DNA from: a virus
Taxonomy: Duplodnaviria > Heunggongvirae > Uroviricota > Caudoviricetes
IMG/VR virus record: IMGVR_UViG_3300033121_000168
Location: 1 to 64,000 of that record
Strand: one strand, 5' to 3'
DNA length: 64,000 bases
The notes under the pieces were generated by a model, which searched no databases, was not told the DNA's origin, and saw only the letters and a list, made by a program, of their open reading frames with translations. Both the position numbers and the translations under genes were made by a program. Shown here piece after piece: positions 4,948 to 49,814 of this stretch (position 1 is the first letter of the stretch; each line of letters begins with the position of its first letter).

Positions 4948-5141
4948 AGAACTCAAAAGTAAAATTTCAAGCTTGAAAAGTTTTTTAACAAAAGCCCAGA
5001 TCGAAAATGCCCTATCCTCAAAACGTAAATAAGCCAGGAAATTGTTGATAACGCATTACGAATAACGGAGAGCGTTAACCGGATAAAATTAACCAGTAAT
5101 AAATAACCATTTAACGATAAATATTAAATAAGGGGAAATAA

Positions 5142-5366
5142 ATGCACTGTCGTATCACTAAACCAAAAGGGTTACAGACTAACCCGCAAAAGCGCAACTC
5201 AATTAATAAATGCTTTGAGATTAATAAGATATATTCACATCTGAACATTAATCATTATATATTAAATGGGAGTCCTTTTATTTGGACTGAATCCGAAATT
5301 GAACTTGTTACACCAGACCAATTTAACGTTTCACATTTAACATATGAATTTACAACTAGAGACTAA
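5142..5366 (+). CDS. hypothetical protein
   Basis: 74-aa ORF with GGGG RBS, inside an otherwise non-coding repeat-rich region. Confidence 0.3.
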   Translation: MHCRITKPKGLQTNPQKRNSINKCFEINKIYSHLNINHYILNGSPFIWTESEIELVTPDQFNVSHLTYEFTTRD

Positions 5367-5836
5367 GCAAGCTCTGTGCCTACATATGTAGGGTTTCTAC
5401 TCAGTTTTGATCAATCTAGGGTTTATCCTAACTTAGACTGAATTGTCACTAAATGACGAATCCTCAGGAATGCCCTTAAAACGCTCTACAATCGATTTTC
5501 ACCCCTTGCCTATAGTCTGGTCTCAAAAAATATAGTTCTCGCAACATGGAGCTATCCTCAGGTTCTAAACATGGGTTTACATAGACAAAAATCCAGACTT
5601 ATCCACATGTTGTAAAATAATAACAAAGTATTTTACTAGGGTTTGTGTTTTGTGTTACGCGTGCATGCGTGTCTAGATCTAGGGACGGGTTTTCAATAGC
5701 GTTACAAATTATTACAGTTTGTTGTAACAAAACAACGGAATTCTGTGCATAATGGGAACCAATGCAGCAATGCAGACGACACAGGAAAAACATGATACTA
5801 CGTCAAGCCCTCACACAAACCAAAGGAAGTGATTAA

Positions 5837-9650: not shown

Positions 9651-9988
9651 TATGACTAAAAATTTTTTTTATAAAAGGTAAATTTGTTAAAATTTAGAGA
9701 TCTCTTAAAACGGTCTATAATCGATTTAAAGGTCTTACCCTAGCACTGGTATTACTTTAGACTGAAAACCTCTTAGGAGTCGTTTAAAGAGGAAATAGAA
9801 CTATGTTAAGAACAGATTTCTTATGTTTAGTTATCAATAGATGATACAATTAAGTTTTGGATAGATAAACAATATGTTGTGCTGGCACAACGAGCTTATG
9901 AAGTATAGGGTGAAACCCTAACAGGAACACAAAAATAATGAATCAGATCATAAAGAAGTCTTCATAACTTGTTTCAAAACTAAGATTC

Positions 9989-10004
9989 GTGGTGTTGACA
10001 CCAC
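9989..10004. promoter_or_regulatory. operator-like palindrome GTGGTGT-TG-ACACCAC (copy 2)
   Basis: Identical 23-bp context to copy 1; overlaps a TTGACA hexamer. Confidence 0.5.
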
Positions 10005-10354
10005 AAGGAAGTTTTGACGACAATTCCTTGACTTTACACAAAAAATATGCTAAAATTAAAAATGTATGTTGATTCATTAACATTCATGTGCAGTTTGCAC
10101 ATAAAATTAATGTTTTAAAATATTTATATTTAATAAATAATTTATTTTCTTATTTATAAGATTTATTGTTTATAAGGAATTATTAGTTTTGATTTGATTT
10201 ATTTAAATTCTTTATAACTGTAATGTTTATTCCTTCGGAATTAAGTAATAAATATTTCTAGATATGTATATTTTGATAAGCTATTCAGCCTAAGGTCTTG
10301 ACTTCATCAAATTAATTTGATAAGATTAAGTTGTGTTTAATTTATGGAGGTGCT

Positions 10355-10615
10355 ATGGAGTACATGGAATTGAATGATAATAAGGTAAAGATTTCAGCTA
10401 TGGGAATTGCGGACTTTTTAGTTGGAGTTACTGAGAAGGTGAAAGAGGGGTATGAGTTGAATTATTTGAATAATGACATGTATCCTGTTGCTTATGGTGG
10501 ATATTTTGAAGTAGTTGTTCAAAAGGTTCAGGCTCAAAAGGTTCAGGCTGAAGAGGTTAAGGAAGATAAGGTTGAGGTTGAGGGTAAGAGGGGACGTAAG
10601 GCTAAGGTTGATTAA
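10355..10615 (+). CDS. hypothetical protein with Lys/Glu/Val-rich repetitive C-terminus
   Basis: ATG at 10355 with GGAGG RBS 4 nt upstream (the listed 10331 start is probably too early); imperfect 15-nt tandem DNA repeats (AAGGTTCAGGCTCAA-like) encode KVQAQKVQAEEVKEDKVEVEG. Confidence 0.45.
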   Translation: MEYMELNDNKVKISAMGIADFLVGVTEKVKEGYELNYLNNDMYPVAYGGYFEVVVQKVQAQKVQAEEVKEDKVEVEGKRGRKAKVD

Positions 10616-10678
10616 CTAGATTAGATATACTATAGGTTACAGTGAGTGGTGATACGACGATAAAGGAGGTTACTTAAT

Positions 10679-11437
10679 ATGCGACAATCTAAACAGGTAC
10701 AGCGTACCAAGGGTTCTTCACGCGATAGTTCGAAGATTAAACCTAAGTTTCAATCGCAACGGGAAGAGGCTGTGAAGGCAAATCCTTTAAGACCAATGAA
10801 CGACAAACAGGCTGAGTATATTAAGTTAATTGAGAACTTTCCTGTTATTGTTGCTACTGGGTTCGCAGGAACATCTAAGACGTACATTCCTACTGTTATG
10901 GCTGCGGACTCTTTTAAAGTGGGTCGGGTAAATAAAATCATAATCACACGTCCAGCAATCAGTTCTAGTCAATCTGTTGGGTTTACTGTCGGCAGTTTTC
11001 AGCAAAAAATGACTATGTGGCTTGGTTCTGTCATACCTATCCTGAAAGAACGACTTGGTTCTGCAATGCTGGAGATTGCTTTGGAGCAAGGCGACATTGA
11101 GTTTGTTCCTTTAGAAGTTCTGAAGGGTATGAGTATAAATAACGCCTTCATGATTATTGAGGAATCTTCAGATCTGACAAAGGAAGAGGTTATTAAGATT
11201 GTTACTCGTATGGGTAAAAATTCTACATTAATTCTTGCTGGGGATGTTCGACAGTCTGAATTGAAAGGTGATTCTGGCCTTGTTTGGTTGACTGGTTTTA
11301 TTGAGCGTCATAAGATGCAAGACATTTTTGGTTGGATTGATTTTGATAGTACAGATGATATTGTGCGATCCGATGCTGTAAAACGCTTTATCATAAATCT
11401 TGTCAGGGACGAGAAGAAAGCATTCAATAAATCTTGA
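10679..11437 (+). CDS. phoH: PhoH-like ATPase
   Basis: Walker A GFAGTSKTY, PhoH-like downstream motifs (LILAGDVRQSE), GGAGG RBS. Confidence 0.8.
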   Translation: MRQSKQVQRTKGSSRDSSKIKPKFQSQREEAVKANPLRPMNDKQAEYIKLIENFPVIVATGFAGTSKTYIPTVMAADSFKVGRVNKIIITRPAISSSQSVGFTVGSFQQKMTMWLGSVIPILKERLGSAMLEIALEQGDIEFVPLEVLKGMSINNAFMIIEESSDLTKEEVIKIVTRMGKNSTLILAGDVRQSELKGDSGLVWLTGFIERHKMQDIFGWIDFDSTDDIVRSDAVKRFIINLVRDEKKAFNKS

Positions 11438-11490
11438 ATTCTTGTTCATTGGTGTTATAATTAAATACCCAATAACACAAAGGAGTAAAC

Positions 11491-12114
11491 ATGAAACAAA
11501 CTATAGGTTCTTCCTTAAAACTTAATGAATTTGATGAAGATGACTTAGGTTCAAGTAAAGGTGAACTTCCTTTCTGTGTTAATTCTACAGTGTCAAATGA
11601 GATTATCATCCCCATTGATGAAGTTGTGCAGGAGGCGTCTTATTACAGAAACGTGGCACACGCAGTTTCTAGTGCAACCGGGGATGATGTAGTCAGGTAC
11701 AGAATTAACTCGCCTGGAGGCCGTTTAGATGGCTTGATAGCCCTTTTGCATGCAACTGTAGGTACTCAGGCAACTGTAGTAGCTGAGATTGTTGGAGAGT
11801 GTCATAGTGCAGCTAGTATTTTAGCTTTACATTGTGATGAGATTTTTGTAGGGCCTTATGCCAGTATGTTGTGTCATTCTGTTAGATATGGATATGCTGG
11901 CAAATGTGCAGATGTAGAGGCTTATGTTAAACACACAACTAAAACTACAGAAAAGCTTATGCGAGAAACTTATACAGGATTCCTTTCAGAAGAAGAAATT
12001 GATGACTTACTTAAGGGTAGGGAACTATATTTAGATTCTGCTGAAATTATTGAGAGGTTAAAACTTAGGGAAGAACTTTTCAATCAATTAGAGGAAGATA
12101 ATTCATTAGATTGA
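11491..12114 (+). CDS. ClpP-family (S14) serine peptidase-like protein
   Basis: INSPGG motif, Ser candidate in GECHSAAS, His in MLCHSV, matching the ClpP layout. Confidence 0.6.
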   Translation: MKQTIGSSLKLNEFDEDDLGSSKGELPFCVNSTVSNEIIIPIDEVVQEASYYRNVAHAVSSATGDDVVRYRINSPGGRLDGLIALLHATVGTQATVVAEIVGECHSAASILALHCDEIFVGPYASMLCHSVRYGYAGKCADVEAYVKHTTKTTEKLMRETYTGFLSEEEIDDLLKGRELYLDSAEIIERLKLREELFNQLEEDNSLD

Positions 12115-12115
12115 G

Positions 12116-12604
12116 GTGAATATGAAAGAAATTTTGGAAATACTTGACTATGATAAAAATAGTGGTAAAATTAAAAATAAAGTAACAAAGAAATTTCTTT
12201 CTGTTCAAGAAGATGGTTATGCTGTAGTTGTATTTGGGAATGGTAAGTCTAAAAAAATTAAGTTTAATAAGTTATGTTTGATTCTTGGTTATGGGGTTGA
12301 TTTAATTCCTGACTTCAAGATTATTCATAGGAATTTAAACACAAAGGATTTTAGACTTTCCAATCTAATGCAGATTTCGAAAGAAGACTACAAGAATCTT
12401 AAGGAAGCACTTAAAAATATCCAGGGAGGAATTACTGTGCTTCCGCATCCTACTGATGTATTTACTTACAAAGTAAGTTGGTATTCTGGAAACATAAAGA
12501 AAACTAGAGTTATACAGGACTTAGTTGTTGCTAAGAGGTTAGAGATTAGATTGAAGCTTAAATATAGTAAAATAATAAGTAAATTCTGTTTATTTGAAGA
12601 ATAA
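12116..12604 (+). CDS. hypothetical protein
   Basis: 162 aa, GAGGTGA RBS. Confidence 0.5.
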   Translation: MNMKEILEILDYDKNSGKIKNKVTKKFLSVQEDGYAVVVFGNGKSKKIKFNKLCLILGYGVDLIPDFKIIHRNLNTKDFRLSNLMQISKEDYKNLKEALKNIQGGITVLPHPTDVFTYKVSWYSGNIKKTRVIQDLVVAKRLEIRLKLKYSKIISKFCLFEE

Positions 12605-12852
12605 ACTAAATAATACTTGTTTATACAGATATTAAATGATATAATTCACTAATTAAAGATTAATTTTGTTGTAAACATTCTTTTCTGGAAGCAAATAAAA
12701 GCTATTTTAATTTCCTTTCGTAGTTATCTGTTGCTTTGATAGAGTGAGATTAGGTTACAACAATGTAATCGGACATCGTTTGTGTTTTAACTCCTTTTAG
12801 CACTTGCAGTTGTCGCTGGAGCCGTAACCAGCATTATGATTAAGGACAACAT

Positions 12853-13056
12853 ATGATTTGTATTTCTTGTGGTGCATATTTTAAGCAGAATAGATTTAAT
12901 GAAACTTTGACATGTGAAATGTGTCTAGATGGTTTGAATGAACCAGTTTTGTATGAATCCGTGTATGAAGCTGATGTTCAAACAATTACAAATCCTTCTG
13001 GGAAGACAAAGCCTGTTTTCTTAGATGAAGTGCAAGAACCTCTTGACAGGGTTTAA
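12853..13056 (+). CDS. zinc-ribbon small protein
   Basis: CISCG ... CEMC double CxxC. Confidence 0.45.
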   Translation: MICISCGAYFKQNRFNETLTCEMCLDGLNEPVLYESVYEADVQTITNPSGKTKPVFLDEVQEPLDRV

Positions 13057-13070
13057 TTTTCTGCTACAAT
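13043..13070 (+). promoter_or_regulatory. near-consensus sigma70 promoter (TTGACA-16 nt-TGcTACAAT) for the small ORF and tRNA operon
   Basis: TTGACA at 13043-13048, 16-nt spacer, extended -10 TGCTACAAT at 13062-13070. Confidence 0.7.
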
Positions 13071-13100
13071 AGCTTCATTGATTCACAAAAAGGAGATTTT

Positions 13101-13235
13101 ATGTACTTTAAGGATATTGAAACAAGTCGTGCTGGGAAGTTGACTCATGATAAGAATCAGAAGTCAAACGCACGTAAACGTTTAGATGATGTTGCTGCAA
13201 AGCTTAAGTTGAAGCATCAACGTCAGAACAGTTAA
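13101..13235 (+). CDS. small basic protein (44 aa)
   Basis: AAGGAG RBS, MYFKDIETSRAGKLTHDKNQKSNARKRLDDVAAKLKLKHQRQNS; directly upstream of the tRNA block. Confidence 0.4.
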   Translation: MYFKDIETSRAGKLTHDKNQKSNARKRLDDVAAKLKLKHQRQNS

Positions 13236-13242
13236 GAATTTA

Positions 13243-13317
13243 GGGTAATTCGTATAGAGGTTATTACGGTGGATTGTCGATCCATTTACAGGAGTTCAAT
13301 TCTCCTATTGCCCGCCA
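13243..13317 (+). tRNA. tRNA-Asp(GTC)
   Basis: Acceptor GGGTAAT/ATTGCCC (one G-U), anticodon loop TTGTCGA, T-arm GGAGTTCAATTCTCC, CCA. Confidence 0.6.
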
Positions 13318-13322
13318 AACTT

Positions 13323-13398
13323 GCCTGAATAGCTCAGATGGTAGAGCGATTCCCTGAAGAGGAATGCGTCGGAGGTTCGAATCCTTCTTCTGGCACCA
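13323..13398 (+). tRNA. tRNA-Phe(GAA)
   Basis: D-arm AGCTCAGATGGTAGAGCG, anticodon arm ATTCC-CTGAAGA-GGAAT, T-arm GGAGGTTCGAATCCTTC; one acceptor mismatch. Confidence 0.75.
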
Positions 13399-13483
13399 AA
13401 GAAAATGCATGTTGTTTGGCTACAACAAACACTAATCAAGAATGATGACGATACTTGACATTGAAGTGGAAAGCTTCTATAAT

Positions 13484-13555
13484 AGAGACTTAGCACAGAG
13501 GTAGTGCGGCTCCTTTACACGGAGTAGGTCATAGGTTCGATCCCTATAGTCTCTA
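13484..13555 (+). tRNA. tRNA-Val(TAC)
   Basis: Acceptor AGAGACT/AGTCTCT, anticodon loop TTTACAC, T-arm ATAGGTTCGATCCCTAT; CCA not encoded. Confidence 0.7.
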
Positions 13556-13559
13556 CAAT

Positions 13560-13635
13560 GTCGATATAGTTTAGTTGGTTAGAACAGGAGACTTTCAATC
13601 TCCAAAGTCGGGTTCGATCCCCGATATCGACTCCA
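13560..13635 (+). tRNA. tRNA-Glu(TTC)
   Basis: Acceptor GTCGATA/TATCGAC, anticodon arm GGAGA-CTTTCAA-TCTCC, T-arm TCGGGTTCGATCCCCGA, CCA. Confidence 0.8.
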
Positions 13636-13647
13636 GAATTTTTAGGT

Positions 13648-13720
13648 GTGACTATAACTCAACTGGTTAGAGTTTCAGGTTGTGACCCTGAATGTGAGAG
13701 TTCAAGTCTCTCTAGTCACC
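13648..13720 (+). tRNA. tRNA-His(GTG)
   Basis: Acceptor GTGACTA/TAGTCAC, anticodon arm TCAGG-TTGTGAC-CCTGA, T-arm GAGAGTTCAAGTCTCTC. Confidence 0.75.
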
Positions 13721-13733
13721 CCTAAGAGTTTAA

Positions 13734-13809
13734 TGCGGGATAACTCAGTTGGTAGAGTGCGAGGCTCATAACCTTGATGTCGTCGGTTCGAATCCGGCTC
13801 CCGCAACCA
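13734..13809 (+). tRNA. tRNA-Met(CAT), elongator-type (or Ile2 via lysidine)
   Basis: Acceptor TGCGGGA/TCCCGCA fully paired, anticodon loop CTCATAA, T-arm GTCGGTTCGAATCCGGC, CCA. Confidence 0.75.
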
Positions 13810-13816
13810 GAATTGA

Positions 13817-13892
13817 TGCCGGTTAGCTCAGTTGTTAGAGCACTCGCTTGATAAGCGATAGGTCGTTGGTTAGAGTCCAACACTGGCAACCA
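13817..13892 (+). tRNA. tRNA-Ile(GAT)
   Basis: Acceptor TGCCGGT/ACTGGCA, D-arm GCTCAGTTGTTAGAGC, anticodon loop TTGATAA, CCA. Confidence 0.7.
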
Positions 13893-13922
13893 TTTGATGG
13901 GTCTTTATTTAAAAGATCTTGT

Positions 13923-14000
13923 TGGCGAGTAGAATAGTTTGGCCTAATTCAAGCGGCTTTGACCCGCTGATCGTTGGTTCGAATCCAACCTCGTCTGCCA
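13923..14000 (+). tRNA. tRNA-Gln(TTG), acceptor first pair U1-U72 mismatch
   Basis: Anticodon arm AGCGG-CTTTGAC-CCGCT, T-arm GTTGGTTCGAATCCAAC, acceptor TGGCGAG/CTCGTCT (6/7 pairs), CCA. Confidence 0.55.
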
Positions 14001-14007
14001 AATTTGT

Positions 14008-14093
14008 TCCGTTGTAGGAGAATTGGTAAATCCAGCACACTGTTAATGTGCCACTTAATTGTACTGTAGGTTCGAAGCCTACCAACGGAGCCA
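14008..14093 (+). tRNA. tRNA with anticodon GTT (Asn) but type-II length (86 nt, 14-nt variable region)
   Basis: Acceptor TCCGTTG/CAACGGA perfect, anticodon arm GCACA-CTGTTAA-TGTGC, extra CACTTAATTGTACT before T-arm GTAGGTTCGAAGCCTAC, CCA. Confidence 0.55.
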
Positions 14094-14095
14094 AA

Positions 14096-14317
14096 ATTTC
14101 AATACAGCTAGACCGGCCAGTCGAAAAGAATCAATTTTCAAATACAATTCCTCTTGAAGTTGAACATATTGATGGTAATAGTCAAAATAATGTAGAATCA
14201 AATTTAACCTTACTTTGTCCAAATTGTCACTCATTGACTAAAACTTATAAATCTTTGAATAAAGGTAATGGGGGATATAGTAGAATGAAAAGGTATAGAG
14301 AAGGTAAAAGTTATTAA
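14096..14317 (+). pseudogene. HNH homing-endonuclease remnant (C-terminal HNH motif only, no canonical start)
   Basis: In-frame translation ...EVEHIDGNSQNNVESNLTLLCPNCHSLTKTYKS... carries the HNH core; the frame opens inside the upstream tRNA with no ATG/GTG/TTG, only a possible ATT at 14096 after a GGAG. Confidence 0.5.
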
Positions 14318-14401
14318 GCTGGGTTAGCATAGTGGGAGTGCAACGGTTTTGTAATCCGTCGAAGAAATTCAAAGGGTGTTCGATTCACCCACTCAGCACC
14401 A
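14318..14401 (+). tRNA. tRNA with anticodon TGT (Thr) but 84 nt long (14-nt variable hairpin, U31-U39 mismatch)
   Basis: Acceptor GCTGGGT/ACTCAGC, anticodon arm ACGGT-TTTGTAA-TCCGT, variable CGAAGAAATTCAAA (GAA/TTC hairpin), T-arm GGGTGTTCGATTCACCC, CCA. Confidence 0.5.
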
Positions 14402-14410
14402 ATTTATAAT

Positions 14411-14487
14411 GCGTGTATGGTGTTTAACGGCTAACATCTCTGGCTTCCACCCAGAAGTTCTCGGTTCGAATCCGAGTACCCGCACCA
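14411..14487 (+). tRNA. tRNA-Gly(TCC)
   Basis: Anticodon arm TCTGG-CTTCCAC-CCAGA, T-arm CTCGGTTCGAATCCGAG, acceptor GCGTGTA/TACCCGC (one mismatch), CCA. Confidence 0.7.
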
Positions 14488-14491
14488 GAAT

Positions 14492-14588
14492 TACAGTATG
14501 GCCGAGTGACTAGGCAGCGAATTGCTCCTACATAAGTAGGAAAAGTCAAACTCGCTTCAGGCTGGTTAAAATCCAGTTACTGTATCCA
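14492..14588 (+). tRNA. tRNA-like gene (Ser-type TGGCCGAG D-arm) with a 31-nt insertion in the anticodon arm; possibly interrupted or pseudo
   Basis: Acceptor TACAGTA/TACTGTA perfect, D-arm GCCGAGTGACTAGGC, T-arm GCTGGTTAAAATCCAGT, CCA. The only 5-bp anticodon-stem pairing (AGCGA/TCGCT) encloses 31 nt (ATTGCTCCTACATAAGTAGGAAAAGTCAAAC) with an internal hairpin, not a 7-nt loop. Confidence 0.4.
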
Positions 14589-14593
14589 AATTA

Positions 14594-14679
14594 GGAGTAA
14601 TGGCGAAATGGTAGCCGCAAGAGTTTGCTAAACTCTCGTTAGAAATGGCGTGTAGGTTCAAGTCCTACTTACTCCGCCA
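14594..14679 (+). tRNA. tRNA-Ser(GCT), type II
   Basis: Acceptor GGAGTAA/TTACTCC perfect, anticodon arm AGAGT-TTGCTAA-ACTCT, long variable arm, T-arm GTAGGTTCAAGTCCTAC, CCA. Confidence 0.75.
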
Positions 14680-14688
14680 ATATGAATT

Positions 14689-14777
14689 AGAGTGTAGCTA
14701 CAAAGGGTACAAACAGGACTTGAAATCCTGGCTACTGTAGAGATACGGTAAGGGTTCGATTCCTTTACACTCTGCCA
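14689..14777 (+). tRNA. tRNA-Ser(TGA), type II
   Basis: Acceptor AGAGTGT/ACACTCT perfect, anticodon arm CAGGA-CTTGAAA-TCCTG, long variable arm, T-arm AAGGGTTCGATTCCTTT, CCA. Confidence 0.75.
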
Positions 14778-14784
14778 TAAATTA

Positions 14785-14870
14785 GGATGAGTAGACTCGT
14801 AAGGAGCGAGGACAGCCTGTAAAGCTGTTGTCTATCGGCCAGCTTGGATCGTTACCAAGGTCATCCACCA
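14785..14870 (+). tRNA. tRNA-Tyr(GTA), type II
   Basis: Anticodon arm ACAGC-CTGTAAA-GCTGT, long variable arm, T-arm CTTGGATCGTTACCAAG, acceptor GGATGAG/GTCATCC, CCA. Confidence 0.65.
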
Positions 14871-14876
14871 ATAAAT

Positions 14877-14953
14877 GGGGTCGCATGTACCAAGGGCGGC
14901 GAAGGAGGTTTGCACCTTTCTTGTGGTGAGTTCGATTCTCACTGGCTCCACCA
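14877..14953 (+). tRNA. tRNA-Ala(TGC) with G3-U70 identity pair
   Basis: Acceptor GGGGTCG/TGGCTCC including the G3-U70 wobble, anticodon loop TTTGCAC, T-arm GTGAGTTCGATTCTCAC, CCA. Confidence 0.7.
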
Positions 14954-14955
14954 AT

Positions 14956-15031
14956 CTTCATATAGCGCAGTTGGTAGCGCGTTTGCTTTGGGAGCATAAG
15001 GTCGAAGGTTCGAATCCTTCTATGAAGACCA
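14956..15031 (+). tRNA. tRNA-Pro(TGG)
   Basis: Acceptor CTTCATA/TATGAAG perfect, D-arm GCGCAGTTGGTAGCGC, anticodon loop TTTGGGA (G37), T-arm GAAGGTTCGAATCCTTC, CCA. Confidence 0.75.
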
Positions 15032-15038
15032 AATTAAA

Positions 15039-15122
15039 GCCTCGGTGGTGGAATGGTATACACACTGCGCTAAGAACGCAGCGCCGAAGGGATTGAGGGT
15101 TCGACTCCCTCCTGAGGCACCA
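15039..15122 (+). tRNA. tRNA-Leu, type II, anticodon read as AAG (unusual A34)
   Basis: Acceptor GCCTCGG/CTGAGGC, anticodon arm CTGCG-CTAAGAA-CGCAG, variable arm GCCGAAGGGATTG, T-arm GAGGGTTCGACTCCCTC, CCA; paralog of the tRNA at 176. Confidence 0.65.
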
Positions 15123-15138
15123 ATAAGATTTAATTTTT

Positions 15139-15170
15139 ACCCTGTGTATATTACACGGGGTTTTTGCGTT
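15139..15170 (+). terminator. rho-independent terminator closing the tRNA operon
   Basis: 10-bp stem ACCCTGTGTA/TACACGGGGT with 3-nt loop followed by TTTTTGCGTTT. Confidence 0.8.
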
Positions 15171-15181
15171 TGGAGAATATA

Positions 15182-15544
15182 ATGCCTTTTGTTCCTGGTA
15201 AATCTGGTAATCCGAATGGAAGACCAACTAAAGATCGAATTTTGGAAAAAGCAGCAGGCGATTCTAAATCAAATAGAAAGCTTAGGGAAAAAGCTTTACT
15301 TGAGTTAGCTCGTAAGGTTAAACCACATACTGGAAAAGCAATTGTTACTGCCATGAACATCATGGAAAATGATAAATCTTCTGAAGCAGGAAGACTTAAA
15401 GCAGCAGCCTTACTTATTCAGACGTATAAGTCTTTAATCAATGAATTATATGATTATAGATATGATGAAGAGATTGCTGAAGAAATGCAAGAGACTGACA
15501 AAGCTCCTGTATTCTCTTTAAAGATGGTTAATAAGGATGAATAA
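15182..15544 (+). CDS. putative terminase small subunit (GNPNGRP-motif family)
   Basis: ATG at 15182 with GGAG RBS; N-terminal MPFVPGKSGNPNGRPTKD matches the G-x-SGNP-x-GRP motif of one terminase small-subunit family; sits directly upstream of the large subunit. Confidence 0.5.
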   Translation: MPFVPGKSGNPNGRPTKDRILEKAAGDSKSNRKLREKALLELARKVKPHTGKAIVTAMNIMENDKSSEAGRLKAAALLIQTYKSLINELYDYRYDEEIAEEMQETDKAPVFSLKMVNKDE

Positions 15545-15559
15545 ACATAAGGAGGTTGA

Positions 15560-17108
15560 ATGAGTTCTAATACTGTATTTGCACCAGCGTCAAAAGCACA
15601 AGAGCAATTCTTGAATAGTGATGCAGATATTACTTTCTATGGTGGTAAAGTTGTGCCTCCATTCAAAACCTATTTAATTCGGTGAAACCCTAACGTAAAA
15701 TCGAGGGCAATACCGAGCCAAGCAGGGGGTATTTTTAATATCCCCGGGCGTGTGTAGAGACTATGGGAAACCAGTAAGGTTCAAGCGAATCTGAAACAGT
15801 AGGATGCTTTATAGCATAAGATATAGTCCGACACCCAAGGAAACTTGGGAGTACTCTAGCGAAGTACATAACTTTCTGGCAGCGGGCAGTGGAAAGAGCC
15901 ATTGCTTACTTATGTCGTTCCTAAAGTTTTGTCATCATCCACGTACTCGTGGTGTGATATTTAGGCGAACAACAAAGCAGATCACAAACCCTGGTGGTTT
16001 ATTTGACTCTGCAGTTAATTTATACAAATTAGTAGATCCTAAACTAAGAGTAAGAATGAGAGAGTTAGAACTTGTTTTTAGTTCTGGAGCTGTTCTCAAA
16101 TTTGCTTACCTTGACAATGCTTCTGATAAATATAACTTCCAAGGTGCGGAACTTACTTTCATTGGTTTTGATGAGATTCAACAATTAAGTGAAGACAATG
16201 TAACTTATTTGTTTTCTCGTTTGCGTTCAACCTCAGTTGATTATAAGAAGCAGATTGTAGCTACAGGTAATCCTGACTACGATAGTTTCATTCGACATTG
16301 GGTTGAATTTGCACTTGATGAGCGTGGCATTCCAATTAGAAAAGATGTTTACCCTACTCGATATATGTGTCAAGCGATGGGTGGCTCTATTGAGTGGGCA
16401 GATACTAGAGAAGAACTAGAGAAGAAATATGGTACTGGGGATGACTCTGGTATTCTATCCTTTACATTCATTCCAGGGACTATTTATGATAATCCACCTT
16501 TGATGAAGGCTGATCCGACTTACGTTAGTAAGTTAAAGAAACTTCCTCGCGTTGAGATGGAACGTCTTCTATTGGGGTCTTGGTATGCAAGACAAGAGGC
16601 TGCAGGACTATGGAAGAGAGAGTGGATTACTCTTGTAGATCATCCTAATCCTAAAGCAACAAAAAGGATTAGAGCCTGGGATTTTGCGTTTAGTCTACCC
16701 TCCGAACAATATCCAAATCCTGACTGGACTCGTGGTGTCCTTATGTCAAAGGATAAGAACAGTGTTTACACAGTTGAAAATGTCGTTTCTATGCGAGACA
16801 GAGTACACGAAGTTGAGAAGTTAGTATTTGAGACTGCAATTCGGGATGGACAAGAGGTTATTATTTCTATACCTATTGACCCTGCAGCAGCAGCAGGAGC
16901 ATATGCTAGAGACTTCCAACGGAGGCTTTCTGAATATGGTTTCAATGTGAAACTATCGAAGCCTGTAAAGTCCAAGGTAACTAGATTTGCTCCATTTTCG
17001 AGTGTAACTCAGGCTGGATTTGTTAATGTAGTAAAGGGTGATTGGAATACTCCTTTCTTTGATGAATTGGAGATATTCGATGGAGATCCTAAGAAAAAAG
17101 ACGATTAA
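15560..17108 (+). CDS. terminase large subunit, split gene: exon 1 15560-15646 (29 aa) + exon 2 15879-17108, joined by group I intron splicing
   Basis: Exon 1 (GGAGG RBS) encodes MSSNTVFAPASKAQEQFLNSDADITFYGG; exon 2 continues AAGSGKSHCLL... (Walker A), FDEIQ Walker B and a C-terminal nuclease domain. The Walker A motif YGG|AAGSGKS is regenerated only when 15647-15878 is removed; exon 2 is in frame 0 with the long ORF 15804-17108. Confidence 0.8.
15647..15878 (+). ncRNA. group I self-splicing intron (232 nt, no ORF) in the terminase large subunit gene
   Basis: 5' exon ends in U (..ATGGTGGT); internal guide sequence GCCTCCAT at 15655-15662 pairs 7/8 with the exon end; P7 strands AGAGACTATGG / AAGATATAGTCC (canonical S element); P9 hairpin CCCAAG-GAAA-CTTGGG; terminal G at 15878 precedes GCAGCGGGC of exon 2. 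Confidence 0.7.
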
Positions 17109-17314
17109 ATTGGGTCGTCTATAAACTCATTGAATTCGGTGGACACCTACTTGGAATCAAGTAGACAATACCGAGCGAAGCTGGTGTAATACCAGAACGT
17201 GTAACGACTAGCCGAAAGGCGTAGGGGCAAGTGCTCCGAAGCGGTGAGAAACCTAATAACTTAGGTTTAAGATATAGTCTCATCTGCATGGTGACATGCA
17301 GCATTTTAATATAG
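17106..17314 (+). ncRNA. second group I intron-like element inserted exactly after the last sense codon of the terminase large subunit (3' boundary uncertain)
   Basis: Exon end AGACGAT (17099-17105, last nt U) pairs perfectly with GTCGTCT at 17114-17120 (P1 with terminal U-G). Shares AATTCGGTG, CAATACCGAGCGAAGC, ACGACTAG (P7 5') and AAGATATAGTCT (P7 3') with the intron at 15647. P9-like hairpin CTGCATG-GTGA-CATGCAG. The terminase TAA stop is the first 3 nt of the element. Confidence 0.5.
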
Positions 17315-17324
17315 GAGAATTTCT

Positions 17325-17852
17325 ATGATTTATAATTCAAACTCTACAGGCCCTTTTAAAATTCTGCAAAGGAATGGTGATGCTTGTTTAATTCAGTTTA
17401 TAGACACCGGCACCACCAAAACTGCTTGTATTTCTAATATATTAGCTGGTAAAGTAAAAGACCAATATTTCCCTACTGTGTATGGTAAGGGGTATTATGG
17501 GGATTACGACAAGACCACGACTTATTACAAGCAGGCTAAACAGCTTTGGCAAAATATGCTAAAAAGATGTTATTGCGAAAAAGACTTAAAAGGTTACTAT
17601 GGTAAAGCAACAGTATCACAAAGATGGCTGAACTTTAGCAATTTCCTAGAGGATTTACCTAGCCTTGTAAACTTTAAGCAGTGGCTTGCTGGACAACAAA
17701 AAACAGGCGGGAAATATAATCTGGATAAAGATTTAAAGGTAAAAGGTAATACCTGTTACTGTAAAGAAGCCTGTATGTTCGTAACTGAGTTTGAAAATAA
17801 ATCAGAGGGCGCTAAAAATGGCAAACCTTATACTAAAATGGGCAAGAGTTAA
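17325..17852 (+). CDS. hypothetical protein next to the second intron-like element; possible intron-associated endonuclease/DNA-binding protein
   Basis: 175 aa with its own GGAG RBS; W-x2-M-x2-RC-Y motif (LWQNMLKRCY) and Tyr/Lys-rich regions reminiscent of DNA-binding modules in homing endonucleases; the position mirrors intron-encoded ORFs. Confidence 0.4.
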   Translation: MIYNSNSTGPFKILQRNGDACLIQFIDTGTTKTACISNILAGKVKDQYFPTVYGKGYYGDYDKTTTYYKQAKQLWQNMLKRCYCEKDLKGYYGKATVSQRWLNFSNFLEDLPSLVNFKQWLAGQQKTGGKYNLDKDLKVKGNTCYCKEACMFVTEFENKSEGAKNGKPYTKMGKS

Positions 17853-45806: not shown

Positions 45807-48044
45807 TTAAAAGATTACTTCACAAGTTCCACCAGCACATGCTGCTCCTGCCATAGTATCAACATCAACAAATTGCTTCTTTTGTAACTCATTACTGAAG
45901 TCAATCTGTTTGAGATTATTAGAAATTGTACACCATTTATGAAGATTATAACAATCTTTCAAGCAGTTAGTCATTTCCAACAGATCTCCATTGAAATAAT
46001 TAAAGGCAAACTTATTTGCTCTACGAACCCAATCTCGTTTCAAAAGATCTTCTCTAGCTTCAGGATCAAGTTTTTCACCCCATCCATTTGCAGTATCACA
46101 TGCAACCCAAAGGTTTTCATTGAAAGCTTTAAGTCCATCCACAATTAAACCTGAAGCAAGTAAACTAGCATTACCATATTTGTTAAGAATTTGTTCTGCT
46201 GTAAATACTTCAGTAAATGGTGCCTGAGGATATGCTTTATCCCCCATAGCAGAAAGCAATGAAATACCAGCAAACCATTCTCGATTATTATAGATATATT
46301 CTTCAACTTCATCCCAATCATCAACTGTGATCGTGTTGCTTACATTGTGTCGAAGATTTTTATCTACACAAAGATCGATATTAGTACCATACTCAATCCA
46401 TACTTGTTGAGCTTTCTTAACGAAATCTAATTGTTTGACTCCAAGAAGATCGCTTTTATAAATGCTACCTTCTTTACTTACAACAGGAAAACTAACAACT
46501 TTATCTGTACCAGTTGATGACCATACACTATCTTCAATCATTTCAGGATTACTTTGTTTGATTAAAGCTAATACATCATCTTGATCATTCATTTGAACAT
46601 TTCTAAAATAAATTGGAGAATGTTCACCATGAATTCCTGAAGCTGTACCAAGTAATACACTTGCATTTCCTGAAGGTTTAACTGCAGTAGTTCTAGCAGC
46701 AGGATTAATATTGATTAATTTAGCAACAACTTTATTCCAATATCTAACACCTTCTGCTGCTTTTTGCATATTGGTTTCATCAAACAAAACATCTGGATTA
46801 TTCATCCATCCTGTAATACTTACTCCAATTAAGGCTTCACGTTCAATAATCTTTTTAGATGCTTCGGTAAGATATTTAAAGTTTGTGTATCCTGCTTGTA
46901 AAGTTCCAAGGATTGCACTAGCTTTACTTGCTCTCATCAAAGTTTCAAAATCAATGCATTTACCACCATTGGTTTCAGTAAGATTACAAACTTGAAAACC
47001 ACTTTCAGCATCTATTGATTTTGGAAGCATGCCAATTTCAACACAAGGATTATAACAGAATTCCAAATTATCAGTAAAGATAAATCCAGGTTCTCCAACT
47101 TGTCGAACTGATTTCATAATCTCATGCCATTCTTCACGAGTTACTTCATCACGTTTCAGCATAACAGAATTATTACTTCTACCACGTTGAGGATTAGTAA
47201 TGAACCAATCTCCGGTTTTGGCATTTAGCATTTCTCTGTCATCTTTACTGAACATACAAATTGTAGCACTGCGACGAACACCACCTGAAAGTACAGCATC
47301 AGACATATGCATTACAAAGTCATACGCAACAATACTTGGCATTCTAACAAAATTCGAATCACCTGTAAACAGACCTTCAATCAGAGCTTCACATTTTTGT
47401 AAAGATTGACGCAAACCATCAGGTCCAGGAGCCTTAAAACCACCTGAGATCAGTGCACCCTTTGGTCGAATTTTAGAATAATCAAAGTGTACTTGAACAC
47501 CTCTATATTCTTTAAATTCTCCATCATGATCAAAATAACTAGCTAACAAAACCCCAAATGAATCGGCCCATCCTTCAATAGTATCGGGAATTGTGAACAC
47601 CTTTGATTTCTTTAAACTACGTTTCTTAAGATCTGGAAGTTTGTTAATGTGTTGAGTTTGAACACTGAAACCAACACCACATCCACATAATAGCATATAC
47701 ATTGCTTCTTGGAAGAATCTAGGGCGATCTACATGAGAAACAGTGCAATTATACATTCTTGCTTCATGCTTGAATAATTGTTCACCACCAAATTGTAATG
47801 CTCGTTGTGCTCCAAGAATTAATTTCTCTTCATAAGCATCTTGAGCATATTGAATCAGTTCTTCAAGTTCAGGAGTCATTACATCTTTATATTTTTCTCG
47901 ATGCATGTCCATTACTCGCTTAACTGATTCCTCCCATGTTTCATATCTATTTTTAGAATCATCCCATCTACTATATCCCATATAGAATTTAGATTGAGAC
48001 AACATTCCTTTACCAATATTTCCAATTTCATTCAACCTTTGCAT
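45807..48044 (-). CDS. nrdJ: ribonucleotide reductase catalytic subunit (likely class II, B12-dependent; no small subunit gene seen)
   Basis: 745 aa; RNR-like active-site regions (..MLLCGCGVGFSV.., ..NPCVEIGM..), C-terminal Cys pair (ACAGGTCE); adjacent NrdH and ThyX; class assignment is inferred from the absence of nrdB. Confidence 0.7.
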   Translation of the reverse strand: MQRLNEIGNIGKGMLSQSKFYMGYSRWDDSKNRYETWEESVKRVMDMHREKYKDVMTPELEELIQYAQDAYEEKLILGAQRALQFGGEQLFKHEARMYNCTVSHVDRPRFFQEAMYMLLCGCGVGFSVQTQHINKLPDLKKRSLKKSKVFTIPDTIEGWADSFGVLLASYFDHDGEFKEYRGVQVHFDYSKIRPKGALISGGFKAPGPDGLRQSLQKCEALIEGLFTGDSNFVRMPSIVAYDFVMHMSDAVLSGGVRRSATICMFSKDDREMLNAKTGDWFITNPQRGRSNNSVMLKRDEVTREEWHEIMKSVRQVGEPGFIFTDNLEFCYNPCVEIGMLPKSIDAESGFQVCNLTETNGGKCIDFETLMRASKASAILGTLQAGYTNFKYLTEASKKIIEREALIGVSITGWMNNPDVLFDETNMQKAAEGVRYWNKVVAKLININPAARTTAVKPSGNASVLLGTASGIHGEHSPIYFRNVQMNDQDDVLALIKQSNPEMIEDSVWSSTGTDKVVSFPVVSKEGSIYKSDLLGVKQLDFVKKAQQVWIEYGTNIDLCVDKNLRHNVSNTITVDDWDEVEEYIYNNREWFAGISLLSAMGDKAYPQAPFTEVFTAEQILNKYGNASLLASGLIVDGLKAFNENLWVACDTANGWGEKLDPEAREDLLKRDWVRRANKFAFNYFNGDLLEMTNCLKDCYNLHKWCTISNNLKQIDFSNELQKKQFVDVDTMAGAACAGGTCEVIF

Positions 48045-48046
48045 TA

Positions 48047-48388
48047 TTACTCCACATCTACTTGACCTTTCAAACGGTAAAGATCAATAACCAATTTCAA
48101 CCCTTTACTCTTATCCTTAGCTTCGATACTTGCATGACCTGATTCTAACCAGTCTGCATCTTGACGTTCATTACCAACTACTCGATCTGAAATAACAACT
48201 TCATTAAAATAATTTCTATGTTGAAGATTTTCTTGATATTCATAAGGAACCGAAGTATCTACTCCGAGTTCAAATAGAATTTGATTGAATTCTTCTGGAT
48301 TTTTGTCAACCCAAATCTTATTTACTTCTGGACGGATCTTATTGATTTCAGAAAGAGAAATGTAACGCAGTGCTACGATATTAAGCAT
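48047..48388 (-). CDS. hypothetical protein
   Basis: 113 aa, start overlaps the RNR stop. Confidence 0.5.
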   Translation of the reverse strand: MLNIVALRYISLSEINKIRPEVNKIWVDKNPEEFNQILFELGVDTSVPYEYQENLQHRNYFNEVVISDRVVGNERQDADWLESGHASIEAKDKSKGLKLVIDLYRLKGQVDVE

Positions 48389-48470
48389 TTATAACTCCTT
48401 TATAGGAGACATGCTACTTTAAATACTCAAAGGAGTATCGATTATAGCATGTCATTGTATGTTTTTCTAG

Positions 48471-49160
48471 TTAAATCTTGAACACTGTAGATACTGCAGT
48501 AGCAATAGCTTTCGCGAGTTCTTGATGTTCTTTCTGTGTACCTTCTGCTGTGCGAAGTTCAATATAATGAATGAAACTACGAATAGTACCTTGAACATAT
48601 AATCGAGAAATAGTATTACCTTCAGGAAGGATAGATCTTGCTTGTTCTTTAGCAATTCCACAACCAATTGCCCAGTTATAATGTTCAGTAACTAAGTCTA
48701 AGACTTCTTGTTGTCTTCGATTCCATTCTGCAACAATGAACCTACTATCTTCAGAATCTTCATCAAGTTCGATACTATTCTGTCGATTCTTCAAATCCTG
48801 CATCCGTGCTTCACGAATAACAAATCCAAGATCTTTTGTAGGGTCAGCATAACGCTGACTAAATTCTTGAAATGAGAATGATCTGTGACGAAGCATCTGA
48901 CGTGCAATATCTCTGGTAGTAGTAATTTCAAGAGTTGCACTTGCCATTTCAAATGGGGACCAGTGTTTATGTTTAACAAGGTAGTTCAGTAACTTATCTG
49001 AAGTTTCGTTGTTCAACTGGTTAGAAGGATTACTTACTCGTGCGCAATAAGCAATTAGTTCTTTAACATCAGATCCATCGAACCATTCACTTGTGTCTGC
49101 ACTTGGTTGTGTATACCCAATTAACTTTGCTTTTGTATAATCCATCAAACTACCTCCCAA
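48471..49160 (-). CDS. thyX: flavin-dependent thymidylate synthase ThyX
   Basis: ThyX signature R-H-R-x7-S (MLRHRSFSFQEFSQRY) and overall size 229 aa. Confidence 0.85.
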   Translation of the reverse strand: MGGSLMDYTKAKLIGYTQPSADTSEWFDGSDVKELIAYCARVSNPSNQLNNETSDKLLNYLVKHKHWSPFEMASATLEITTTRDIARQMLRHRSFSFQEFSQRYADPTKDLGFVIREARMQDLKNRQNSIELDEDSEDSRFIVAEWNRRQQEVLDLVTEHYNWAIGCGIAKEQARSILPEGNTISRLYVQGTIRSFIHYIELRTAEGTQKEHQELAKAIATAVSTVFKI

Positions 49161-49435
49161 CTCTTTACTTCAATTACCTTAATCTTAGGTTCAACTTGAT
49201 AAATAAAGTAATTATCATAATTAGATTCACCACTACCATAGTGACTTTCATAAGAATCCCAGTCTAAAGCCCAATATGTGTCATCATCTTTATTTCTGAA
49301 GATTGTAGTTGCACTACACATATCTTTGTATAAGGTGTCATAATCTTTGTTTACTTCAATTTCTTCAAAGTTATCTGGATAACCTCCCCAAACCCATTCA
49401 CGAGGATTTTCAATTTCAATCTTATTCATTAACAA
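49145..49435 (-). CDS. hypothetical protein
   Basis: 96 aa, overlapping start. Confidence 0.45.
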   Translation of the reverse strand: MLMNKIEIENPREWVWGGYPDNFEEIEVNKDYDTLYKDMCSATTIFRNKDDDTYWALDWDSYESHYGSGESNYDNYFIYQVEPKIKVIEVKSWEVV

Positions 49436-49814
49436 TCTCCTTTAAATTTGGATTTAGATCAAATTCAACTAAAGCCATTAGGTTAAAAATCACACAAGTA
49501 AGTTCATGCAGATCAGGTTCAAGACCTTCAGGATCGTACTTATTACCCTTCATGAAGCTCTGAAAATGCCTGTGTGCTGCTTTTAAATACTCTAGCCTTG
49601 CGTTAGGTACTTTCTTCCAATTATCTCGATCTGGGTACTTCCTAAGACCTACAGTGTAGTGTCTAGCAAGTTCTTCAAGAGCGTAAGGAGGAATCAAAGT
49701 GTAATCAAGTTTATCTTTACTATACTTCTTTCCTATTTCTTTAGGTTCTAAGATTGAACCATGATCAGGAGTGTAATAAAAGTCACCAACGCAATGTGTA
49801 GGTGGTTTACTCAT
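49422..49814 (-). CDS. hypothetical protein
   Basis: 130 aa. Confidence 0.45.
   Translation of the reverse strand: MSKPPTHCVGDFYYTPDHGSILEPKEIGKKYSKDKLDYTLIPPYALEELARHYTVGLRKYPDRDNWKKVPNARLEYLKAAHRHFQSFMKGNKYDPEGLEPDLHELTCVIFNLMALVEFDLNPNLKEIVNE

Follow-up and report, generated by a model that had tools for sequence, protein, structure and literature searches.

In bacteria, the only tRNA introns known are group I introns (PMC4033280), which interrupt anticodon loops and are spread by homing endonucleases (PMC3984707, PMC4033280). Here we describe a tRNA gene of a tailed phage that is likewise interrupted within its anticodon, by an insert of only 22 nt. The gene lies at positions 14492 to 14588 of the 64,000 nt analyzed from IMG/VR record IMGVR_UViG_3300033121_000168 (Caudoviricetes; positions 1 to 64,000), a stretch hereafter called the window; loci of its relatives carry L numbers. 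The locus resembles a group I insertion in its clean presence/absence polymorphism, in a possible short co-conversion tract, and in belonging to a phage with two real group I introns and several HNH genes. It differs in that group I introns measure about 200 nt or more, whereas the 22-nt insert has no ribozyme core, no U/G boundaries, no open reading frame (ORF), and no Rfam match.

Two other kinds of system are comparable. In phage T4, the endonuclease SegB is encoded in the tRNA cluster, recognizes a conserved tRNA motif, and targets tRNA genes (PMC2330249), and the free-standing HNH enzyme MobE mobilizes in trans a neighboring element that is unable to move itself (PMC2790892). Such action in trans is the route proposed here for the ORF-less 22-nt insert. 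In the T4 systems, it is the endonuclease gene with its flanks that spreads, whereas a dedicated 22-nt hairpin would do so here, with a cognate nuclease that is only a candidate. The short tRNA introns of Thermoproteales are also alike, being tens of nucleotides long, hairpin forming, located in D-arm as well as anticodon sites, and related across tRNA species (PMC4033280). They differ from the present case, in which the archaeal bulge-helix-bulge (BHB) motif does not form, promoters are bacterial, no splicing endonuclease was found among about 38 ORFs scanned, and the copies lie in opposite orientations.

Small hairpin elements of bacterial genomes, including the REP/REPIN-RAYT system (PMC3116915), small dispersed repeats (SDR), and IS200/IS605 elements, share with the insert a hairpin of about 20 to 35 nt, precise presence or absence, no target duplication, and a short conserved flank. 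Families of the REP, SDR, and IS200 types are multicopy and need a Y1 (HUH) transposase, whereas the insert described here occurs in one copy per genome, and no multicopy host genome turned up. IS200/IS605-type elements insert seamlessly. Cyanobacterial small dispersed repeats of 21 to 27 nt were reportedly described by Elhai et al. in 2008.

Identity and architecture of the interrupted gene

The interrupted gene is 97 nt long on the plus strand, including an encoded CCA. Its 5' half runs TACAGTA, TG, GCC, GAGTGACTA, GGC, A, GCGAA, and TTG, followed by the insert, CTCCTACATAAGTAGGAAAAGT; the segments 3' of the insert are CAAA, CTCGC, TTCAG, GCTGG, TTAAAAT, CCAGT, TACTGTA, T, and CCA. The parts of the gene are as follows.

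14492..14588, plus strand: whole interrupted tRNA-Cys(GCA) gene, from the sequence and its alignment with uninterrupted L001, L150, L153, L155, L082, L083, L085, L075, and L078
14492..14498, plus strand: acceptor 5' strand TACAGTA, pairing with 14578-14584; 7/7 pairs kept in 8 alleles, with compensatory changes at each position
14501..14515, plus strand: D arm with 3-bp stem GCC/GGC and loop GAGTGACTA; the stem covaries (G-C, A-T, C-G), and the loop is the same in 7/8 alleles and in the tRNA-Cys of Providencia phage PR1
14517..14524, plus strand: anticodon stem 5' strand GCGAA (positions 27-31) with U32, U33, and G34, the same as in the uninterrupted L150 arm
14525..14546, plus strand: 22-nt insertion CTCCTACATAAGTAGGAAAAGT, splitting the anticodon; at least 9 homologous alleles do not have it, and it is identical in L148, L173, L175, L183, and L188
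14526..14541, plus strand: hairpin of the insertion, with 6-bp stem TCCTAC/GUAGGA and loop ATAA; the core CCTAC-N4-GTAGG also occurs in the tRNA-Phe insertion of L002, L003, and L181
14547..14555, plus strand: C35, A36, A37, and A38 with anticodon stem 3' strand CTCGC (positions 39-43), from alignment with uninterrupted alleles
14561..14577, plus strand: T arm GCTGG/TTAAAAT/CCAGT; the stem covaries, and the T loop TTAAAAT is present in 7/8 alleles and phage PR1
14578..14588, plus strand: acceptor 3' strand TACTGTA, discriminator U73, and encoded CCA, from the sequence and allele alignment

The sequence by itself is insufficient to tell the identity of this gene. Default ARAGORN made no call for the window copy, which also had no match to RF00005 or any other Rfam family even at E<=10 (gathering threshold, 29 bits). 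Identity was instead read from relatives, collected as 80 IMG/VR loci fetched via the terminase and as further contigs obtained by exact-protein look-ups and pattern scans. The same gene is found uninterrupted, at 74 to 75 nt, in L001 (= L110, L185), L153 (= L182), L155, L150, L082, L085, L083, and L075, and L078 carries an uninterrupted cousin with a canonical elbow. All uninterrupted copies have the anticodon loop UUGCAAA, the discriminator U73, an encoded CCA, and a conserved A31.C39 mismatch. Among 8 aligned alleles, the 20 stem pairs are all standard except 31-39, and compensatory double changes occur in all four helices; in the anticodon stem, pairs 27-43, 28-42, 29-41, and 30-40 covary. 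ARAGORN at the 95% threshold types the uninterrupted copies as tRNA-Cys(gca), and the allele at L153:2616-2687 scores 40.7 bits on RF00005 against the threshold of 29.

The reconstructed uninterrupted sequence matches 106 GenBank phage records, several of which are annotated as tRNA-Cys in T5-like phages (84% identity). The tRNA-Cys of the T5-like (Demerecviridae) Providencia phage vB_PreS_PR1 (KY363465.1, 32337-32407) belongs to the same tRNA family and has in common with it the D loop GAGTGACTA, the T loop TTAAAAT, A31.C39, UUGCAAA, U73, and the encoded CCA. The T5-like genes are uninterrupted, unlike the window copy, and the window phage itself is not T5-like: genomes of its relatives measure about 77 to 80 kb and have a different terminase family. 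U73 is present in 8/8 alleles and in PR1. The Escherichia coli CysRS identity set consists of U73 plus the GCA anticodon. On these sequence comparisons, the gene is a member of a widespread phage tRNA-Cys(GCA) family whose contiguous loop UUGCAAA is split as UUG|CAAA by 22 nt in the window, L148, L173, L175, and L183 and intact in all other alleles. Megablast and blastn searches of the array against GenBank phages gave generic tRNA similarity only and no close relatives.

An earlier sequence-only reading of this locus had described a normal tRNA body with foreign sequence within the anticodon arm, and this core idea holds. The 7-bp acceptor helix TACAGTA/TACTGTA, followed by the discriminator T and CCA, is present as it was described, and so is the stem AGCGA/TCGCT enclosing 31 nt that include TCCTAC-ATAA-GTAGGA (14526-14541). 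Calling all parts canonical was overstated, given a D loop that has no GG and the T loop TTAAAAT; these unusual loops are conserved family traits, seen also in annotated tRNA-Cys genes of T5-like phages, and the D and T loops are both kept in 7/8 aligned alleles. The proposed Ser-type D arm and tRNA-Ser identity are contradicted by homologues carrying UUGCAAA and U73 and by ARAGORN and GenBank, which say Cys. A tRNA-Ser or other class II identity is ruled out by the variable loop of 4 to 5 nt and the Cys family membership. A normal 7-nt loop formed by alternative pairing is obtained nominally, by relaxed ARAGORN only, as tRNA-Leu(CAA) with a 24-nt intron at 29/30, and it is rejected because the homologue alignment fixes UUGCAAA as the native loop. 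The same alignment rules out a relaxed ARAGORN call with the 4-base anticodon CCUA, which is also incompatible with the Leu reading.

The insertion itself is smaller than the 31 nt first proposed. Comparison with the orthologous clusters of related phages, a check that the earlier reading had suggested, yielded the uninterrupted alleles that defined the insert as 22 nt. The window allele equals an L150-type anticodon arm (AGCGAATTG|CAAACTCGCT) with CTCCTACATAAGTAGGAAAAGT added after G34; a 1-nt ambiguity allows the insert to be placed at 14525-14546 (G34/C35) or, equivalently, at 14526-14547 (C35/A36). The 31 enclosed nucleotides are these 22 plus the native 7-nt loop UUGCAAA plus A31 and C39. 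The predicted folding energy of the 97-mer is better than that of 200/200 shuffles (z = -3.3), and a cloverleaf-constrained fold keeps the acceptor, D, and T arms while the anticodon region becomes an extended rod capped by the TCCTAC-AUAA-GUAGGA hairpin.

Distribution of the insert among related phages

The insert is a discrete unit that has been precisely gained or lost at one site on two haplotypes. Window positions 9987-17114 (7,128 nt), insert included, are matched at 100% identity by a Logan assembly of SRR32380191, and contigs of ERR14064715, ERR14064713, and ERR12387324 (L173/L188, L175, and L183) have the same 22 nt at the same site. The anticodon arms of L173, L175, and L183 are of one type (type A; GCAAA...CTTGT, variable loop TCTAG), and those of the window and L148 are of another (type B). 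Type A arms without the insert occur in L001, L110, L153, and L155, and a type B arm without it occurs in L150. The sites that tell the arm types apart (positions 29, 41, 43, 45, and 46) lie within 5 to 8 nt on both sides of the insert. Both arm types thus exist with and without the insert between flanking distinguishing sites, and at least two precise gain or loss events must therefore have happened.

The closest pair of alleles differs by the insert only. L173/L183 and the insert-free L153 match perfectly over 192 nt upstream and 509 nt downstream (701 nt), the 22 nt being the sole difference. Background divergence among these phages is 5 to 15% and mosaic, so the perfect 701-nt block marks a very recent event. 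Apart from the insert, there is no pseudogene-like decay: every stem pair is intact, and the type A alleles bearing the insert equal that of L153. The window allele consists of an A-type tRNA body around a B-type arm with the insert, a pattern expected of a short co-conversion tract centered on the insert. Between the window and L001, the gene shows five differences, compensatory or in the variable loop, at a background divergence of 5 to 7%. An argument for co-conversion from these two alleles alone was dropped on account of that divergence and replaced by the comparison of L150, L153, and L173. The tRNA-Cys gene is wholly missing from L002, L154, and L157; in the window, the insert-bearing gene is the only tRNA-Cys.

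A homologous insert was found in a second tRNA gene. In three JGI samples, tRNA-Phe(GAA) measures 98 nt instead of 76 (L002:3381-3478, L003:158-255, and L181:3211-3308), with a 22-nt insert, ACTCCACCTACTTTTGTAGGTT, between G24 and C25, and L153:1118-1193 is the same Phe allele without it. The interrupted gene is the only tRNA-Phe in L002. The window has the corresponding empty site.

13323..13398, plus strand: intact tRNA-Phe(GAA), whose G24/C25 junction is the empty site of the homologous insertion, from ARAGORN and comparison with L002, L003, and L181

The reverse complement of the Cys insert, ACTTTTCCTACTTATGTAGGAG, and the Phe insert are identical at 16/22 positions without gaps, and both are laid out as 6 nt, a 14-nt CCTAC-N4-GTAGG hairpin, and 2 nt. 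The chance of such a match was estimated at about 1e-5 for one specified comparison, from the per-position rate of matches with <=6 mismatches (about 7 random ones per 1.9 Mb). By sequence, the two copies are the same kind of unit, lying in opposite orientations relative to tRNA transcription. Both inserts sit at a G^C step, and their sites are the two ends of tRNA positions 25-34. On the strand reading ACT..., both follow G and precede C-R-R-T-T-C/T-S-C-T-G.

A palindrome with the same stem as the tRNA inserts, CCTACATATGTAGG, occurs at window positions 5379-5392, right at the 3' boundary of a 346-nt segment (5044-5389, with an ORF at 5142-5366) that the homologous region of L152 lacks. Its homology to the element is weak.

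Searches for further copies returned little. A pattern scan of IMG/VR gave 29 matches, of which only the Phe copies of L002 and L003 lie within a tRNA, and a scan of 185,579 bacterial and archaeal species, each represented by one genome, gave 9 scattered single matches, a chance level. A metagenome scan with the T-arm 18-mer retrieved mostly an unrelated recurrent sequence and two uninterrupted alleles. Within 0.96 Mb of related loci, there was no further copy with <=5 mismatches, and searches for a template of the 22 nt in the window plus these loci, by exact 10- to 14-nt k-mers and by fuzzy 22-mers (<=6 mismatches), gave chance-level matches only. Each phage genome has a single copy of the insert. 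Split-BLAST and intron-mode ARAGORN, applied to about 100 related loci, detected no interrupted tRNAs beyond Cys and Phe; apparent inserts of 82 to 426 nt in these loci proved to be adjacent tRNAs and were ruled out.

Origin of the insert and fate of its transcript

How does a 22-nt unit without an ORF come to occupy the same site on two haplotypes? With moderate confidence, we take the window gene to be a tRNA-Cys(GCA) with a clean 22-nt hairpin insertion that spreads in a homing-like manner and gives a nondecoding 97-nt RNA. Under this reading, the insert would be passed between coinfecting relatives by break-induced gene conversion, that is, by homing in trans. A candidate free-standing phage nuclease would cut the uninterrupted tRNA site, which the insert destroys, and the filled allele would be immune and act as the repair template. 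Candidates for such a nuclease are the HNH ORFs at 12116-12604 and 17325-17852 and the remnant at 14048-14317, for which the case is circumstantial.

Several points weigh against homing-like spread. No nuclease linked to the insert was found, local gene content being alike in L173, which has the insert, and L153, which does not. Only two target genes of the insert are known, and the likeness of their target sites, 6 to 8 of 10 positions depending on the allele, is suggestive only. A true mobile family might be commoner than one with no further copies in IMG/VR and 185,579 genomes. Finally, the insert-bearing alleles have an undecayed tRNA body and approximately match intact alleles in frequency among close relatives; a recent, driven selfish insertion would leave such a picture, and it would also be compatible with removal of the insert from the RNA or with an RNA that is useful in a new way.

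Seamless single-strand transposition, of the IS200/IS605 or REP-RAYT type, would be an alternative route of spread. This route fits because there is no target duplication and the flank similarity is one-sided; the transposase and the copy number that go with it are lacking within the data scanned. No Y1 (HUH) transposase was detected in the approximately 38 window ORFs scanned with Pfam and PHROGs, a scan that did not extend to the host, to small ORFs, or to the other ~15 kb of the genome. A bolder proposal, which we regard as unlikely, is that the insert represents a new class of ultrasmall, ORF-less invaders of bacteriophage tRNA genes, either removed from the transcript by a route that is neither group I nor BHB or acting as an autonomous-looking 22-nt homing or transposing unit. 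In the latter option, the unit would be target specific in its own right, choosing a G^C step that borders tRNA positions 25-34, and could enter in either orientation.

A one-off replication or repair accident that produced a pseudogene heading for deletion and spread by descent and general recombination is an unlikely account. Such arrays gain and lose tRNA genes constantly, tRNA-Cys is missing from several relatives, the anticodon is destroyed, and large scans gave no second copy, all of which agree with an accident. An accident sits poorly, however, with the same 22 nt at the same site on two arm haplotypes with distinguishing sites 5 to 8 nt away, with a homologous 22-nt unit in another tRNA, and with the lack of a template in the window or about 1 Mb of related loci; the flanking repeat is only 1 nt, so precise slippage happening twice is unlikely. 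The inactivated tRNA-Ser considered in the sequence-only reading came closest among its three options, with the corrections that the tRNA is Cys, that the insert recurs on two haplotypes, and that it has a homologue in tRNA-Phe. An assembly or sequencing artifact has a negligible chance of being the explanation. The window's own contig was not recovered in IMG/VR or JGI metagenome scans, but the SRR32380191 assembly is identical to the window over 7,128 nt with the insert, the identical insert is present in ERR14064715, ERR14064713, and ERR12387324, and the Phe insert is present in three JGI samples.

If the insertion took place as proposed, what becomes of the RNA? The interrupted gene would be cotranscribed with the array and, like its neighbors, cut out by RNase P and 3' processing, and a stable 97-nt tRNA-like RNA would probably be released because the acceptor, D, and T arms are intact. 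With the anticodon nucleotides separated and buried in an extended helix, this RNA would be unable to decode, and it is probably a poor CysRS substrate and poorly charged. The phage would tolerate the loss because tRNA-Cys is dispensable in the lineage, several relatives being without it.

A mini-intron would lead to the opposite outcome. An endonuclease/ligase pathway, or RNA repair by the host, would take the 22 nt out of the precursor and give back a functional tRNA-Cys; tRNA-Phe would be rescued likewise, and the element would be phenotypically neutral, like a group I intron. The intact body in two haplotypes and at least 4 sequencing runs, at a frequency close to that of intact alleles, speaks for removal, as does the fact that the interrupted genes are the sole tRNA-Cys of the window and the sole tRNA-Phe of L002; archaeal introns of similar size occupy many tRNA positions and transpose between tRNA species (PMC4033280). 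The structural tests gave the small intron of the earlier reading no support. The 22-nt insert is too small for a catalytic core, just as that reading had judged its 31 nt too short for a group I intron: a group I core (P3-P9, about 100 nt or more) is absent from it, and RF00028 matches lie elsewhere in the window only. Group I boundaries require a 5' exon ending in U and an intron ending in G, whereas the exon and insert ends are G/U or C/C in Cys and G/U in Phe; a group I remnant is ruled out by size, boundary nucleotides, and the lack of an Rfam match. A BHB intron of the archaeal type, even in its relaxed hBH or HBh' form, is ruled out as well, since an outer helix is lacking and the central helix has 1/4, 2/4, and 2/4 pairs at the three junction options. 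Moreover, the two inserts are reverse complements at the DNA level, so that their RNA flanks are nonequivalent (2 + 6 versus 6 + 2 nt); RNA ligase, RtcB, the kinase/phosphatase PNK, and splicing endonuclease were not found in the approximately 38 window ORFs scanned (small ORFs, the genome remainder, and the host lay outside the scan); and the promoters are of bacterial type, in a domain in which only group I introns are known in tRNAs (PMC4033280). On balance, a mini-intron is given little chance.

The same low chance is given to a selected tRNA-like RNA, a decoy or sponge for a tRNA-targeting defense nuclease, for CysRS, or for a modification enzyme, in which an intact tRNA body would present an anticodon that is neither cleavable nor usable for decoding. 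The acceptor, D, and T arms, U73, and CCA are indeed intact, the RNA gene is kept in several lineages, and phage tRNAs counter anticodon nucleases and other tRNA-directed defenses (PMC10264068, PMC11464382, PMC11555353). The homologous element in the D stem of tRNA-Phe, in the other orientation, nevertheless points to an element acting at the DNA level, the polymorphism in a 701-nt identical background implies a very recent event, and there is no covariation inside the insert, all Cys copies being identical.

Homing-type insertion itself is known; what is new here is that a homing-like insertion in a tRNA gene of a phage is so small and has neither ribozyme nor ORF. If nuclease-driven conversion is true, the insert is an unusually small element of its kind, its persistence would be explained by the loss of the cleavage site within the tRNA gene, and tRNA arrays would be shaped, one nucleotide at a time, by nuclease conflict between related phages, which would help to explain their fast turnover. 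If the RNA is instead repaired to a working tRNA-Cys, it would mean that a new type of tRNA intron exists beyond Archaea and Eukarya, and removal from the transcript would be the first case of a protein- or host-processed mini-intron in a bacterial system. Since there are insert-bearing and insert-free haplotypes that differ in nothing else over 701 nt, the question is directly testable in crosses. Standard tRNA finders silently miss such interrupted genes, and phage tRNA repertoires are undercounted or mistyped as a result; relaxed ARAGORN types the window gene as Leu or as "Pyl/Arg."

The tRNA array and other observations

The interrupted gene belongs to a same-strand tRNA array (13243-15122), with tRNA-Gly(UCC) 4 nt before its start and tRNA-Ser(GCU) 5 nt past its end. 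The array lies directly upstream of the small and large terminase genes of the tailed phage. It is bracketed by the following transcription signals.

13043-13070, plus strand: second sigma-70-type promoter, 11/12 match to the consensus
13455..13483, plus strand: sigma-70-type promoter TTGACA-17-TATAAT, 12/12 match to the consensus, inside the tRNA array
15139..15161, plus strand: intrinsic terminator closing the array, 17 nt past the last tRNA

The sigma-70 promoters, together with a terminator of bacterial type, favor a bacterium as the host.

Almost every relative has a different array content (window 13243-15122 compared with L001, L002, L150, L153-L157, L173, L183, and L184), with genes for Phe, Arg, Gln, Asn, Gly, Cys, Tyr, Ala, Trp, and Pro coming and going. 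Many of these relatives have an identical 434-aa terminase exon product despite their varied arrays, and array turnover must therefore be very fast. Class I tRNAs with long variable regions are found for Asn (86 nt), Thr (84 to 91 nt), and Ile (89 nt), at window positions 14008-14093 and 14318-14401 and at L082 c1061-1149, L046:4081-4165, and L078:580-670. A variable-region mini-hairpin, AGA-GAAA-TCT, is common to the tRNA-Ile of L082 and the tRNA-Thr of L046, and its counterpart in the window tRNA-Thr is GAA-GAAA-TTC; different tRNA species seem here to have in common a second type of small hairpin. Two weak tRNA-like genes, at 14785-14870 and 14877-14953, are called only at a relaxed ARAGORN threshold, and both are conserved in L153, L155, and L173. 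Within this pair, Tyr(GTA) has an odd T loop, ATCGTTA, and Ala(UGC) has G3.U70, an aberrant D arm, and a partial tmRNA-like Rfam match of 23 bits. Relaxed ARAGORN also calls an 86-nt "tRNA-Val(aac)" at L153:6020-6105, with equivalents in L154-L158, at the 3' end of the HNH ORF corresponding to window 17325-17852; these calls are probably false positives.

Genes for HNH proteins and true introns surround the array. An intact 162-aa HNH ORF (12116-12604) lies just upstream of it and is conserved in relatives, and an ORF with the remnant of an HNH motif (...CPNCHSLT...) lies at 14048-14317, between tRNA-Asn and tRNA-Thr. The gene for the terminase large subunit (15560-17301) is split by RF00028 group I introns at 15637-15850 (62 bits) and 17050-17301 (74 bits); exons were called at 15560-15685 (41 aa) and 15804-17108 (434 aa), and the second intron is followed by the HNH ORF at 17325-17852. 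In L150 and L178, the terminase was called in one uninterrupted piece, of 496 and 817 aa, respectively. A PhoH-like gene encodes 591 to 594 aa with a LAGLIDADG_3 domain in relatives (L178:817-2601 and the start of the L182 locus) and 252 aa in the window (10679-11437), and the domain in the longer genes is probably an intein with a homing endonuclease. Farther downstream, a nucleotide-metabolism block (45807-49814) contains a class II RNR-like ORF (45807-48044), ThyX (48471-49160), and an ORF at 49422-49814 with the N-terminal domain of a MazZ-like dATP/dGTP diphosphohydrolase; this block may be linked to modified bases.

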